Sequence record: PP777464.1
Strand: one strand, 5' to 3'
Length of the DNA: 64,000 nucleotides
Source of the DNA: Escherichia phage fEgEco12
Position 1 is the first letter of the stretch. Each line of letters begins with the position of its first letter. Under the pieces are notes generated by a model that was given only the letters and a program-made list of their open reading frames with translations, had not been told where the DNA came from and did no database searches. Both the position numbers and the translations under genes were made by a program. Positions 21,091 through 56,262 of the stretch are shown piece by piece.

Positions 21091-21288
21091 ATGCGTATTT
21101 TAACTCAAGAAGAGCACAACCACACACTCATATCCAACATGGCATATATCCTACATATGTCACATATCCGTGGTATTGCATATAAGCGTGAATTGGTTAT
21201 GAAACTTTTCATAGGAACTAACTATCAAGAAAAGTATATCGAACTATACTTACAAGAATTACGAAGGGACATAAAAGGTAGACTATGA
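21091..21288 (+). CDS. A-family small protein
   Basis: In-frame motif FIGTNYQEKY. Confidence 0.6.
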   Translation: MRILTQEEHNHTLISNMAYILHMSHIRGIAYKRELVMKLFIGTNYQEKYIELYLQELRRDIKGRL

Positions 21289-21485
21289 AAATGCGTATTT
21301 TAAATAAAGAAGATTATCAAGAACTGTTACGTAAAAACATGGTAAAGATTTATAACACAGACACAAACTTAGAACGAATTGAGTTATACCTTTTGATTAC
21401 ATTGGGTACAAGCTATCAGGGAAGATGGGTGATTCAATATATGGATGCATTGAAAAATGAAATATTGTCCACGAGGAAACAATGA
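21285..21485 (+). CDS. A-family small protein
   Basis: Motif LGTSYQGRW; ATGA junction. Confidence 0.6.
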   Translation: MKMRILNKEDYQELLRKNMVKIYNTDTNLERIELYLLITLGTSYQGRWVIQYMDALKNEILSTRKQ

Positions 21486-21691
21486 AAACTATAACACGAA
21501 CCCAATCATTCGGTCTTATCTTGAAATACATGGACTTAATGTTTGATATCAGCAAAGACCTTTCTAAAACTGAAATCCAAGTTGCAAGAGCAGAGATCCG
21601 CATGTTGGCTGTACTGAACACAAACCATCAGGAAGAGTATGTTGACGATTGGATTCATTTTTTAATAGAAGATATTAAGAGTAAACTATGA
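21482..21691 (+). CDS. A-family small protein
   Basis: Motif LNTNHQEEY; ATGA junction. Confidence 0.6.
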   Translation: MKTITRTQSFGLILKYMDLMFDISKDLSKTEIQVARAEIRMLAVLNTNHQEEYVDDWIHFLIEDIKSKL

Positions 21692-21900
21692 TTTTTTTAA
21701 CACCAGAAGAATATAAGATACGTTTTGTTTCTGTCCAGAATAAAATCTTAATTATATACAATTCAAATGCAGACCTTAACTTATCAAGGGTATTAGAAAA
21801 AGATTTACTTATGGGTGCATTTTTGGATACAGACTTTCAGGTGTATTATGTAGGGGAATACTTAATTGCACTCCAGAATTACATTAAGAGTAAACTATGA
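21688..21900 (+). CDS. A-family small protein
   Basis: Motif FLDTDFQVYY; ATGA junction. Confidence 0.6.
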   Translation: MIFLTPEEYKIRFVSVQNKILIIYNSNADLNLSRVLEKDLLMGAFLDTDFQVYYVGEYLIALQNYIKSKL

Positions 21901-22109
21901 ATAGCATTAACTCAAATCTATATACCGAACGCGTCGCTGCAAGACAACTTGAAATTCTCATAGTATATGAAGAGACTGAGGATTTGAACTTAGCATTAGT
22001 ATTGGAAAATGATATACTATTGGGTGCATTCCTCGGCACAGACTATCAGGAGCACTTCTTGAATGAGTATATAATTGCACTCCAGAAATACATTAAGAGC
22101 AAACTATGA
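21897..22109 (+). CDS. A-family small protein
   Basis: Motif FLGTDYQEHF; ATGA junction. Confidence 0.6.
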   Translation: MNSINSNLYTERVAARQLEILIVYEETEDLNLALVLENDILLGAFLGTDYQEHFLNEYIIALQKYIKSKL

Positions 22110-22324
22110 AACATTTAAGTAATTCCGAGAAGAATAAAATTATCATTGCTGCAATAAACAAATATTTTACACTTCCTCACACAGAAGGTTTATGTGTAAG
22201 GGAACACAGGATAAACACCACCGATATACGCATGATGGCTGTACTGGGGACGAACTTTCAGGAAGAGTATGTTGTTGCACACATAGTTGCCCTCACTGAT
22301 TTAATAAGGGACAAATGCAAATGA
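22106..22324 (+). CDS. A-family small protein
   Basis: Motif LGTNFQEEY; ATGA junction. Confidence 0.6.
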   Translation: MKHLSNSEKNKIIIAAINKYFTLPHTEGLCVREHRINTTDIRMMAVLGTNFQEEYVVAHIVALTDLIRDKCK

Positions 22325-22539
22325 AAGACATAAACACCCAAGAATATCTTAAACGATTAGAACAAGGGAAGAACTTTAGACTTCAAGTTTACGATGATGA
22401 ATCACTAACATCCAATGAAAAGTATGTTATACTAACAGACTCAACATTAATACCATTTGTAGGAACAAACTATCAGGAGGTTATGGTTGACAACCACATC
22501 ACGGCCTTAAAATGTCATGTCAGGGATTTAGGTAAATGA
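22315..22539 (+). CDS. A-family small protein
   Basis: Motif FVGTNYQEVM. Confidence 0.6.
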   Translation: MQMKDINTQEYLKRLEQGKNFRLQVYDDESLTSNEKYVILTDSTLIPFVGTNYQEVMVDNHITALKCHVRDLGK

Positions 22540-54006: not shown

Positions 54007-54015
54007 GAATGAATT

Positions 54016-54429
54016 ATGAAACTGTATCATGCGAGTACTGTAAAAATTGATAACTTTTATATCCCGTATGGTGGTCTTCATATGGGAGGTAAACACAGTG
54101 CTTTAGAAGCTGCATTACGCAAGCTTAGAAGCCCACTGAACGTTGTTGACGCTGATACAGTATACTTACATACCTTAGAAGTTGATGTTGATAACGTGCT
54201 TCGGTGGACGGATATGGGCAGTGATGACGAATGGCGTGGAGTGATTGAGTACTGCGAAATTAACGGCTATGATGCAGTTCAGTACAAAAACGATTACGAA
54301 CCAGATACAGTTCCTAGCTATATGATTTGGGATACGTCTAAGGTTCGCATTGTCGAAGTTGATGCTATGCACATGGATGACGCAGAAATGATCATCGAAG
54401 ATTTCCTTGATGAATATGAAGGTGTATAA
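54016..54429 (+). CDS. hypothetical protein, no family motif
   Basis: ORF track; compositionally distinct (GC-richer codons). Confidence 0.5.
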   Translation: MKLYHASTVKIDNFYIPYGGLHMGGKHSALEAALRKLRSPLNVVDADTVYLHTLEVDVDNVLRWTDMGSDDEWRGVIEYCEINGYDAVQYKNDYEPDTVPSYMIWDTSKVRIVEVDAMHMDDAEMIIEDFLDEYEGV

Positions 54430-54947
54430 TGATTGAACCTATGACAGTACTAGCACGTACTAAATTATTATTGAAGATTGCTGAAATATTCACTGTTCTT
54501 ATGTACAATAATAAAGACATAAATGACTTAGATATTAAGCAACCGTGGCAAATTACAAAGTTCACGGCGTTCCACCGATTGTCATATAATGGTGAAACTG
54601 TTCTTGATTTTAATCCAAAAGCCAAGTTCGTGAATTACGCTGCATTATATGGATGTAATGGTGGATTAACAAATGACTTCACTAAAATAAAAGTACAATC
54701 AGAATCATTAGAATTTAATGACTTACTATATCCAGAATTTAAGTTAACTGAAGAATCACTATTTCAGTACTCACTAATTATAAAAGATGTATATGATCTT
54801 GAGTACTACAAAGAGTTAGTAGATATTTTTAAGAATACTCGACTTTCAAAAGATATTGTGATATTCTGGTATGTTGAGTATGTTACAGAGGAATTGCTTG
54901 AAGAATTTCTTCTAAATATGACAGCAATCAAGGAGAAGTTATGTTAG
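54429..54947 (+). CDS. B-family protein
   Basis: Motif TEESLFQYSLIIK. Confidence 0.6.
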   Translation: MIEPMTVLARTKLLLKIAEIFTVLMYNNKDINDLDIKQPWQITKFTAFHRLSYNGETVLDFNPKAKFVNYAALYGCNGGLTNDFTKIKVQSESLEFNDLLYPEFKLTEESLFQYSLIIKDVYDLEYYKELVDIFKNTRLSKDIVIFWYVEYVTEELLEEFLLNMTAIKEKLC

Positions 54948-55414
54948 ACATTTTAGGAAACATCGATACAGCAAATTATTTTATTCAAGATGCACTGTTC
55001 AATACAGTACAGAAAGGGTTGGATGTACGATGTAATATCCATCAGGGAGATGGGTATTTTGTTGATATCACTGAAACACGCAAGAACGTGTTCAATTTAA
55101 ACATTACCACATTGACACGTCAAAACATTGCACGTATTTTGGTTAATAAAGATGAAATAGTTCTTCGTTATAATTCCAAATTCTTGTTCACATACAAGAA
55201 GAAGACTGACATGTTCAGTACTAATTTGTTTGATGAACCCTTCAATCTGGAAGACTTAGAAGCAACTTTCTTTACACAGAACACTATGCTGAAATTCAAT
55301 GATGTTGAATTTTCATCAGAAGTAATGTCTGAAACACTACAAATGGTTAAGGTAGTATTCTATGCTTTTCAACAGTTTAACGAAGAACGAAACAAGGTTA
55401 ACAACAACAGATGA
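54941..55414 (+). CDS. B-family protein (divergent)
   Basis: Motif LEATFFTQNTMLK. Confidence 0.5.
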   Translation: MLDILGNIDTANYFIQDALFNTVQKGLDVRCNIHQGDGYFVDITETRKNVFNLNITTLTRQNIARILVNKDEIVLRYNSKFLFTYKKKTDMFSTNLFDEPFNLEDLEATFFTQNTMLKFNDVEFSSEVMSETLQMVKVVFYAFQQFNEERNKVNNNR

Positions 55415-55775
55415 ACTAATCGCGGCGATGGGAGCCAATGAGAAATACTTCAATGGGATTCATTTTTTTAAAACGGATCTTAGTGAAAGTAAAGTACTAT
55501 ATGTGTATGGCTCCCAGTACTGCATTGTTACAAAGCACCCCGATGCGATTTCACTAAAATTTAATACTTATTCAAAAAACTTCTTGACGATTAATAAAAG
55601 CAATGTTACTATGTCTGGTATAGGGAATCAGGTTGTTGAGATTCCTTTGGACTCAATTGATTCTATTGAGTTCTTTCAATACGAGTGCTTAGGTGTTGAT
55701 TTTGGTACTGTCAGTACTGAATCTATGCGATCATTAATTAATTTACTTAAAGGTAAAGTTCATGCTTTTAACTAA
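55362..55775 (+). CDS. B-family protein (divergent)
   Basis: Motif SIEFFQYECLGVD; start uncertain. Confidence 0.5.
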   Translation: MLFNSLTKNETRLTTTDELIAAMGANEKYFNGIHFFKTDLSESKVLYVYGSQYCIVTKHPDAISLKFNTYSKNFLTINKSNVTMSGIGNQVVEIPLDSIDSIEFFQYECLGVDFGTVSTESMRSLINLLKGKVHAFN

Positions 55776-56262
55776 TTCGATGAAGTATTCATTTAAAATT
55801 ATCAAAGAAATACTAAATGGATCTAAAAATCATAGTGGGTCTTCCTTTACTAGTGACCAGATCCAACACAGTACAAAGGATTGTACTGTAATCTTTGGGT
55901 TACATAGTCTGCGTTTGACAATAGTAAATAATATTGATAACACAGCAATTGTAATCACCCCATGTCATATTCAGAATGATACTGGTGTATACTTACACCA
56001 CATGGGGACTGTATTCTACATCTTCAATACTGAAGAAAACATTGTTAAAGAATACAACACACTCAATGTTGATGCTGGTGAGTTATTTCAATTGAGTACT
56101 GTCAATGATTGTAACTTCAGTGACAATGCAGAAGTACTTCCATTGTTTCTAAGTCTTCTCAATAACATGGAAAAACTAACCATTGCATACAACAAAAGTG
56201 ACGTACCGCAAGCAGTATTGAATATCACCGAAGCAATGGAGAAATACAAAGCTGTGACCTAA
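55762..56262 (+). CDS. B-family protein
   Basis: Motif DAGELFQLSTVND. Confidence 0.6.
   Translation: MLLTNSMKYSFKIIKEILNGSKNHSGSSFTSDQIQHSTKDCTVIFGLHSLRLTIVNNIDNTAIVITPCHIQNDTGVYLHHMGTVFYIFNTEENIVKEYNTLNVDAGELFQLSTVNDCNFSDNAEVLPLFLSLLNNMEKLTIAYNKSDVPQAVLNITEAMEKYKAVT

Follow-up and report, generated by a model that had tools for sequence, protein, structure and literature searches.

Two Families of Small Paralogous Genes in Tandem Arrays of the Escherichia Phage fEgEco12 Genome

Escherichia phage fEgEco12 is represented here by a stretch of 64,000 nucleotides (nt) from sequence record PP777464.1 (the window, meaning the whole stretch analyzed). Positions 21,091 to 56,262 of the window carry two large families of small, co-oriented paralogous genes, termed families A and B, which together account for 78-79 of the 96 plus-strand open reading frames (ORFs) of that region. 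By megablast, the window matches the Asteriusvirus jumbo coliphages (121Q, PBECO4, Ecwhy_1, SP27, phAPEC6, and the Salmonella SD phages), whose genomes are all about 350 kb. A preliminary description of this DNA had proposed 32 copies of family A and about 50 of family B, each with a conserved signature and a divergent remainder. Protein comparisons by BLASTP, profile hidden Markov models (HMMs), and decoy controls support that picture: both families are real, lie where they were placed, and exceed chance by far, and the counts are close to the 31 family A members plus one diverged copy, and the 42-47 family B members, found here. The members, all on the plus strand, are distributed as follows.

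21091-27280, plus strand: main family A array, gap-free, with 27 HMM members of 65-94 amino acids (aa) and the diverged copy 23007-23258 (BLASTP, HMM).
27968-28192, plus strand: family A straggler within the family B array (BLASTP, HMM).
29496-29747, plus strand: diverged family A straggler with the motif LGTKEQE (first HMM round, alignment).
42361-42588 and 42566-42757, plus strand: two adjacent family A stragglers within the family B array (HMM, alignment).
27270-56262, plus strand: family B array of 47 members (HMM, pooled profile, alignment).
Family B starts 1-16, plus strand: 27270, 27623, 28144, 28796, 29156, 30457, 31094, 31590, 31898, 32220, 33096, 33668, 34213, 34911, 35546, 35829.
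Family B starts 17-32, plus strand: 37185, 37595, 37951, 38246, 38846, 39313, 39756, 40222, 40662, 40976, 41416, 41859, 42705, 43900, 44249, 44538.
Family B starts 33-47, plus strand: 45188, 45664, 46139, 46485, 46886, 47903, 48387, 49622, 50193, 51196, 51689, 52282, 53422, 54429, 55762.
28578-55775, plus strand: 17 ORFs of neither family by the pooled profile, starting at 28578, 29713, 30111, 30263, 32776, 36459, 36619, 36809, 38659, 43292, 47364, 49059, 50771, 52794, 54016, 54941, and 55362.

Among the plus-strand ORFs of the window, all-versus-all BLASTP assigns 29 to family A and an iterated HMM assigns 31, of which 27 form an unbroken run (21,091-27,280) and the other four lie within the family B array. 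The ORF at 23007-23258 (plus strand), inside the run, aligns to family A with the motif lost and is probably a 32nd copy. The adjacent stragglers at 42361-42588 and 42566-42757 have orthologs in 121Q that are 97% and 89% identical, respectively. Near-invariant positions in the family A alignment are G50, T51, Q54, and L65, which yields the signature G-T-x-x-Q-E. Family B appears in BLASTP as fragments of 16, 9, 3, and 3 ORFs; an HMM built from the window alone merges these into 42 members, and a profile pooled with three related phages recovers 47 (103-212 aa). F113 and Q114 are invariant across the 42 paralogs (signature S-E-E-x-x-F-Q-x-S), and the HMM finds no further family B member in the window beyond 56262. 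Mean identity between paralogs in the window is only 25% (family A) and 19% (family B), and members score 41-98 bits against 11.4 (A) and 8.9 (B) for the best of 990 reversed or shuffled decoys. The motifs first proposed for the two families hold as a consensus and fail as literal strings, for exact LGTNYQE occurs six times and the strict family B regular expression three times. Nor are the families recognizable only by a motif, as had been thought, because full-length profiles and predicted folds define both. Both motifs have an aromatic-Q-E core; homology of A and B was nevertheless rejected, with an hhalign probability of 0.3% and iterated HMMs that never overlap. A few motif-bearing ORFs are borderline for family B (e.g., 55362 at E=0.014; the unassigned ORF 49059 scores E=0.13), and several of the interspersed non-family ORFs may be eroded family B copies.

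The arrays are tightly packed, with 98% of their length coding by plus-strand ORFs and a median spacing of -4 nt. The preliminary description had genes abutting or overlapping by 1-4 nt; this is borne out by 25 ATGA overlaps and 5 overlaps of 1 nt, and does not extend to 10 gaps of 0-15 nt or to 47 longer overlaps, which follow from the longest-ORF rule and many of which have an internal ATG giving -4, -1, or +1. Such overlaps of start and stop codons suggest translational coupling within the arrays. Only 7 gaps reach 40 nt or more, and strong promoter-like sites sit in these few gaps (at 21,033, 28,520, 33,612, 45,125, and 49,003), as follows.

21033-21060, plus strand: promoter-like site TTGACT-16-TATTAT before the first family A gene (consensus match; conserved in phage vB_Ec-M-J).
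28520-28548, plus strand: promoter-like site with 11/12 matches in the gap 28518/28578 (consensus scan).
33581-33640, plus strand: terminator-like hairpin (33581-33602) followed by a promoter-like site (33612-33640) in the gap 33593/33668 (sequence scan).
45125-45154, plus strand: promoter-like site of perfect consensus, TTGACA-18-TATAAT preceded by TG, in the gap 45128/45188 (consensus scan).
48970-49031, plus strand: terminator-like hairpin (48970-48989) followed by a promoter-like site (49003-49031) in the gap 48971/49059 (sequence scan).

The arrays thus look like a handful of long polycistronic units reading inward from the left end of the genome. At six family A junctions (22314, 23662, 23897, 24338, 25939, and 26145), the DNA string ATGCAAATGA is held in common; the upstream gene ends K-C-K-stop, and the downstream ORF starts M-Q-M, with its second ATG overlapping the TGA stop. 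With one mismatch allowed, ATGCAAATGA has 16 matches in the window against 4.2 expected. The sharing of this string at six junctions would mark a boundary of the family A duplication unit that is conserved at the DNA level.

Placement at the left genome end follows from alignment to relatives. Position 1 of the window coincides with position 1 of the vB_Ec-M-J, E9.1, and BF17 records, whose first base is the physical end of the genome. In the vB_Ec-M-J record, positions 1-21,525 are annotated as direct terminal repeats, the end of which maps by alignment to about position 20993 of the window, so that the first family A gene (21,091) begins about 98 nt past it. On this evidence, the window is taken to be the left genome end: a direct terminal repeat (DTR) from 1 to about 20,993, its placement resting on the annotation in vB_Ec-M-J, with the two arrays (21,091-56,262) next to it and, beyond them, a small number of other genes, among them those for a Dam methyltransferase and a cytidyltransferase.

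1-20993, plus strand: predicted left DTR, with small genes of immediate-early type, each with its own putative promoter (annotation of the relative, promoter scan).

The DTR and the arrays differ in organization. In the DTR, the 54 ORFs are separated by a median of 80 nt, and sigma-70-like sites are enriched (106 versus 62.7 expected), 11 of them perfect TTGACA-16-TATAAT. A cassette, GTATAATRNTTTAYAT, occurs there in 30 plus-strand copies between 387 and 20116, with 0 copies in the arrays and none after 20.2 kb. It is a conserved stretch of 80-95 nt that precedes small genes and comprises, in order, AAAAAGTACTTGCA/TTGACA (the -35 element), GTATAAT..TTTACATC (the -10 element and start region; GTATAAT..TTTACAT), a 5' hairpin GGGGAGAA..TTCTCCCC, a ribosome-binding site, and ATG. 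These cassettes are likely immediate-early promoters with a structured 5' leader. A second repeated element, the hairpin AAAGGGATTGACTCCGGTCAGTCCCTTT with a 12-bp stem followed by GCTATTATAT, occurs on the plus strand at 9491-9518, 13489-13516, 16758-16785, and 19510-19537; a TTGACT -35-like hexamer lies within its stem and a TATTAT -10-like hexamer after it, and the element may represent another class of promoter or serve as terminator and promoter at once. The same two hexamers make up the site at 21033-21060. G+C content falls from about 0.38-0.40 in the DTR to 0.29-0.34 (about 0.31) in the arrays, and AT skew reaches its maximum (0.20-0.22) over the family A array (window 20001-28000).

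Selection on these genes was estimated gene-wide as the ratio of nonsynonymous to synonymous substitution rates (dN/dS), by the pooled Nei-Gojobori method, from reciprocal-best orthologs of the window and 121Q.

Family A: 22 gene pairs, median aa identity 74%, dN/dS 0.36.
Family B: 39 gene pairs, median aa identity 74%, dN/dS 0.25.
DTR genes: 23 gene pairs, median aa identity 91%, dN/dS 0.15.
Right flank: 9 gene pairs, median aa identity 87.5%, dN/dS 0.10.

Both families differ from the DTR genes (Mann-Whitney p = 6e-6 and 5e-5), dN/dS exceeds 1 in a single family gene, and the interspersed non-family ORFs give a pooled value of 0.25. Ratios of 0.25-0.36 mean real constraint on the copies, and nearly every copy is a protein-coding gene under purifying selection. 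Nonsynonymous evolution in the families is two to three times faster than in the flanks, which is not gene-wide diversifying selection; "hypervariable", the term used in the preliminary description, overstates the case for genes whose positional 121Q orthologs are held at 0.36 (A) and 0.25 (B). That description had also allowed that the reading frames might lack coding constraint in related genomes, or that the region might be an assembly artifact of collapsed repeats. Constraint is present in the comparison with 121Q, and spurious or noncoding ORFs are rejected on the same ratios and on the lack of comparable ORFs on the minus strand. Positions 21-33 kb of the window are matched at 86-98% identity by at least 35 independently sequenced phage records (megablast), which excludes an artifact together with the deep divergence of the paralogs: at 19-25% mean identity, an assembler has nothing to collapse.

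Both families are confined to a narrow group of phages. An exhaustive family B profile search of 1.84 billion cluster representatives returned only 144 matches at E<=1e-3, all of 65-210 aa except one repeat artifact; those with names are hypothetical proteins from jumbo phages of Escherichia and Klebsiella. P0180 (773 aa, 13 motif-like stretches) was rejected as a family B protein, being a low-complexity tandem-repeat false positive. Index-based searches with family A reached only the same phages. Local HMM counts in the syntenic region are as follows.

Window: 31 family A, 47 family B.
Ecwhy_1: 31 family A, 45 family B.
121Q: 26 family A, 44 family B.
Klebsiella RaK2: 13 family A, 32 family B.
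Erwinia Hallingskeid, 40 kb only: 0 family A, at least 31 family B.

RaK2 carries the members of both families intermingled; half of them are closer to a window member than to a RaK2 paralog, and gene order is colinear with the window at the far end of array B. The 40 kb of Hallingskeid lies upstream of the same genes as in the window (for a 282-aa protein, a Dam methyltransferase, and a cytidyltransferase) and keeps T-E-E-x-x-F-Q-x-S-L intact. Within the window, the top-scoring paralog pairs are adjacent, and pairs at rank distance 1 have a mean identity of 28.9% (A) and 23.9% (B) versus 23-25% and 18-19% farther apart. Because the closest paralogs are neighbors, the arrays are taken to have arisen by tandem duplication; to judge from the alignments, this happened mostly long ago, before the Escherichia, Klebsiella, and Erwinia phage genera split, and the copies have since been kept individually. 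Recent amplification of the "genomic accordion" kind is rejected on the 19-25% paralog identity and the cross-genus orthologs. The idea of an actively diversifying repertoire therefore gives way to one that is old and stably kept. Adjacent co-oriented paralogs, closest kinship between neighbors, a location at the terminal repeat, and a varying copy number are the features of a tandem multigene family of a large DNA virus, and each is found here.

An array of this age could also be genome filler, consisting of tandem duplicates that piled up after capsid enlargement (the "ratchet") and are now largely dispensable, with weak or redundant functions. Hua et al. (2017) read the 121Q array of more than 30 genes as genome-expanding tandem duplication (PMC5646251), and both the elevated dN/dS (2-3 times the flank values) and the varying copy number among relatives (26-31 for A, 44-47 for B) agree with such a history. 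Dispensability is nonetheless quite improbable: dN/dS indicates constraint on nearly every copy, 98% of the region lies within ORFs, individual paralogs and their order have survived across genera, and the signature motifs are invariant despite near-total sequence divergence.

The proteins themselves are small and predicted to be soluble, since transmembrane-like segments are absent from family A and B members save for one that stems from an over-extended ORF call. Two of the interspersed non-family ORFs, 28578-28823 and 32776-33117 (plus strand), have 19-aa Kyte-Doolittle maxima of 2.77 and 2.05 and are possible small membrane proteins among the soluble ones. Family A proteins have a median length of 75 aa and a median isoelectric point (pI) of 8.05. 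Their AlphaFold2 model, made with 32 paralogs as the alignment, is a three-helix bundle (helices 8-27, 33-47, and 54-81; predicted local distance difference test, pLDDT, 96.4), in which the N-terminal "MKxL" pairs with the G-T turn and G-T-N-Y-Q-E forms this turn and the N-terminus of helix 3. Other conserved columns (V58, Y61, I62, L65, and I69) are hydrophobic and follow a helical periodicity. Family B proteins have a median length of 160 aa, a median pI of 4.88, and a net charge of about -8. In their model (pLDDT 86.3; predicted template-modeling score, pTM, 0.82), an N-terminal helix is followed by a seven-stranded sheet region and C-terminal helices, and S-E-E-x-x-F-Q is a short helix (residues 109-115); the shorter members (about 100-120 aa) lack the N-terminal part. 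Conserved columns in both families are mostly hydrophobic and periodic, with the addition of one polar motif. These columns and the confident AlphaFold2 models support, at the level of prediction, a common scaffold with a variable surface.

Two resemblances in the motifs were considered and set aside. The family A pattern LGT..Q..V..YI..L...I..KL recalls a helix-turn-helix (HTH) of LuxR type, but its spacing and helix lengths do not fit and no matches were found. The family B pattern E-x-x-Y-F-Q-x-S recalls a tobacco etch virus (TEV)-type protease site (E-x-x-Y-x-Q-S/G); the residue after Q is variable, and the motif is modeled as a well-packed short helix (pLDDT about 97). We know of no TEV-type protease in this phage setting.

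That so small a polar segment is kept invites another explanation, in which the paralogs would be hub adaptors. The invariant signature would dock one partner, such as a host protease, RNA polymerase, the ribosome, or a phage hub protein, and the variable part would recruit substrates, much as the F-box, BTB, and ankyrin adaptors do that have expanded in large DNA viruses of eukaryotes. In 42 paralogs that otherwise share 19% identity, F and Q never vary, the same motif recurs in the Klebsiella and Erwinia phage members, and the conserved polar residues are bunched in one short segment. A structural role suffices to explain these facts, however, because the motif lies in a confidently folded short helix and its S/T-x-x-E fits a capping box; docking to a common hub is unlikely. 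We give still less weight to the proteins as regulators of the phage program, with family A binding DNA or RNA polymerase and family B providing cofactors that tune transcription or replication. The basic pI and three-helix form of family A would suit such a role, as would the position of the arrays between the early region and genes of replication or modification (Dam methyltransferase, cytidyltransferase). Family A shows neither an HTH fold nor a Pfam DNA-binding domain, and regulation of this kind seems very improbable.

Searches for characterized relatives gave uniform results. Pfam has no above-threshold match among 74 aligned members and ten interspersed ORFs; the weak lead for family A, DUF7237, reaches at best 14.3 bits (E=0.05) against a gathering threshold of 27, with none of 32 members at E<=0.01. 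NCBIfam and PADLOC defense-system profiles give only sub-threshold noise against family members, sequence-profile searches of the Protein Data Bank (PDB) return nothing for either family, and family B has no structural neighbor in the PDB. As an indirect check for known anti-defense proteins (anti-CRISPR, anti-restriction, and the like), Pfam, the PDB, and PHROGs pointed to none. In PHROGs, all main-array members of family A fall in phrog_4148, and family B is spread over phrog_9317, 12674, 13866, 15629, 19795, and 34636 (E-values from 1e-12 to 1e-116 for the window proteins); all of these groups are annotated "unknown function", and the splitting of family B into many groups hides the unity seen here. 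Foldseek against viral predicted structures finds only uncharacterized proteins of 121Q, SP27, Klebsiella RaK2, Serratia BF, and Cronobacter GAP32. The preliminary description had recognized neither motif as belonging to a characterized family, and these profile and structure searches, with only uncharacterized matches, agree.

The same searches bear on the possibility of an immunity or antitoxin-like repertoire, which would act during the long infection cycle against polymorphic toxins (colicins, contact-dependent or Rhs effectors, abortive-infection toxins, and effectors of rival phages) and would resemble the runs of orphan immunity genes known from bacteria. Immunity-gene clusters typically consist of small, soluble, diverged paralogs in tandem, family A matches colicin immunity proteins in size, and family B is acidic, with its median pI of 4.88. 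Neither family matches SUKH, another known immunity fold, or a Pfam immunity family, and the neighboring genes all encode hypothetical proteins without toxin domains. We regard an immunity function as not likely.

Proteins of this size might also be packaged and injected with the DNA, like the internal proteins of T4 or the inner-body paralogs of phiKZ, and paralogous internal-protein families do exist in other large myoviruses. The published virion proteome of phAPEC6 is without any product of gp348-gp548. Its mass spectrometry detected proteins down to 4.7 kDa and nothing between gp347 and gp549, the interval in which the phAPEC6 family members gp442c and gp470c both fall. Their absence implies that family proteins are not packaged, and although the proteome is that of a relative and not of fEgEco12 itself, this explanation is disfavored to the point of being extremely improbable.

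What the arrays most plausibly encode, in a reading that we hold tentatively and as something short of probable, is a set of intracellular binders, expressed together, that would serve as inhibitors or decoys in host takeover or the neutralization of defenses. Both multigene families are ancient, restricted to the lineage of Rak2-like jumbo phages, and products of tandem duplication. They would be transcribed from the left DTR end inward, as a few very long, tightly packed operons, to give small soluble non-virion proteins. Each paralog combines a conserved hydrophobic core and one short polar signature with a surface that has otherwise diverged almost completely. Acting as stoichiometric protein binders, the co-expressed paralogs would inhibit or decoy their targets, each specialized for a different variable host or competitor protein, and the outcome would be host takeover or defense neutralization in early to mid infection. 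The preliminary description had ventured an effector or decoy function, and that idea is compatible with soluble, non-virion proteins encoded near the genome end with a conserved core and variable surfaces.

Several observations weigh against the binder repertoire. No homolog of known function turned up in Pfam, NCBIfam, PADLOC, PDB, PHROGs, or the viral structures. The conserved polar motifs could be purely structural (e.g., S/T-x-x-E helix-capping boxes). A fast arms race would not be expected to leave a dN/dS well below 1 in orthologs long kept. Across the arrays, sigma-70-like sites show no enrichment (100 versus 107.6 expected and 108 versus 124.4 expected). Because the arrays also lack the 30-copy early cassette of the DTR, early timing is uncertain, and the genes may be delayed-early or middle rather than early. 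Indirect support for early timing may come by analogy from relatives: the equivalent region of phage CBB is predicted to be early and involved in host takeover (PMC5259590), and the DTR genes of PA5oct are early by RNA sequencing (PMC7318152).

Large eukaryotic DNA viruses offer a parallel. African swine fever virus (MGF110, MGF360, and MGF505) and the poxviruses (ankyrin, BTB, and kelch proteins) carry multigene families near their genome termini, many with immune-evasion or undefined roles. Like the arrays described here, these are co-oriented tandem paralogs beside a terminal repeat, with strain-varying copy number and a conserved scaffold under divergent surfaces. They differ in that there is no kinship of sequence or fold, the host of the phage is a bacterium, and the phage genes are much smaller, with overlapping start and stop codons. 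A bolder form of the binder reading would make the arrays a counterpart of these immune-evasion families: about 80 co-expressed binders on two previously unseen scaffolds, conserved in Escherichia, Salmonella, Klebsiella, and Erwinia jumbo phages, that neutralize variable bacterial immune or toxin proteins or re-target them via a common hub. This form is doubtful.

Other phages provide partial likenesses. The gp37-60 genes in the terminal redundancy of SPO1, the pre-early region of T5, and the early hyperplastic regions of T4 consist, like this locus, of small orphan genes by the dozen that lie close to one end of the genome and are transcribed inward by the host RNA polymerase. Those modules consist of unrelated genes, each with a strong early promoter, which fits the DTR of the window (1-20,993) and not the arrays; outside the DTR, none of the 30 cassettes occurs, and sizable gaps are limited to the 7 noted above. 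In Bacillus phage G, also a jumbo phage, zinc-ribbon proteins have undergone a lineage-specific expansion to about 35 (Iyer et al. 2021, PMC7824862). The expansion is similar in comprising tens of paralogs of one small domain, but families A and B differ in fold, are without the zinc-ribbon cysteine pattern, and are common to several genera, whereas that expansion is limited to a single phage.

Earlier notice of these genes is slight. Hua et al. (2017, mBio) gave one sentence to the 121Q array of more than 30 genes (PMC5646251), and the phAPEC6 paper repeats the point (PMC7247149). That array almost certainly corresponds to the family A locus of 121Q (genes 319-341; 26 members by HMM), although the wording "very similar" does not suit paralogs that average 25% identity, and neither paper offers a family definition, motif, structure, selection analysis, or distribution. 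The RaK2 paper counts about 10% of RaK2 proteins as paralogs (PMC3622015); in all three papers, a definition of the families, any mention of family B, and a suggested function are absent. A review of 224 jumbo phage genomes that draws on proteins of Ecwhy_1 passes over the arrays (PMC7824862). Searches of the literature for what these families are or do gave passing remarks only, and the family B array (44-47 genes) is mentioned in none of the papers that could be searched. The existence of the family A array is thus already in print as a passing remark. As far as searched, what is new comprises the array of family B, how both families are defined and how far they extend, their persistence in several genera, the pattern of selection on them, their location at the edge of the repeat, and the folds predicted for them.

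The scale of the arrays is unusual for a phage: about 10% of a 350-kb genome, and about 80 of its approximately 590 genes, consists of two orphan families kept copy by copy across several genera. If the proteins do prove to be anti-host or anti-defense binders, the repertoire would be among the largest of its kind in any phage and a source of new inhibitor scaffolds, and it could help explain the broad host ranges of the Rak2-like phages used in therapy. If instead the genes are dispensable, the arrays would provide a clean test of the capsid-size "ratchet" model for the growth of jumbo genomes. Family B is a candidate new fold, and both families are sharp markers of this phage clade.

Several smaller features of the region and its relatives deserve mention. 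Beyond the arrays, two ORFs of exactly 282 aa (56946-57794 and 58971-59819, plus strand) bracket three small genes; they were considered as mutual paralogs and rejected, there being no detectable similarity between them. The first, at 56946-57794, is kept in Asteriusvirus, in RaK2-type Klebsiella phages (28% identity), and partly in an Erwinia jumbo phage, and served as the synteny anchor. Within the family B array, the non-member ORF 54016-54429 (plus strand; 137 aa, MKLYHASTVKIDNFYIPYGGLHMGG...) matches phrog_11632 ("unknown function"), is 88% identical in 121Q, and is without a Pfam match. Many homologs of the families come from "Escherichia coli" assemblies, in which contigs of about 345-360 kb are whole Asteriusvirus genomes within bacterial isolate assemblies, in agreement with the titles and abstracts of recent reports on lytic phages in such assemblies. 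In RaK2, two family A members are longer than the rest (13149-13535 and 16814-17161; 128 and 115 aa), and their extra C-terminal stretches of about 40-55 aa are alike (..Y.KF.F.....N........E..E.A......NNY..); in these proteins, a family A domain would be joined to another small domain.

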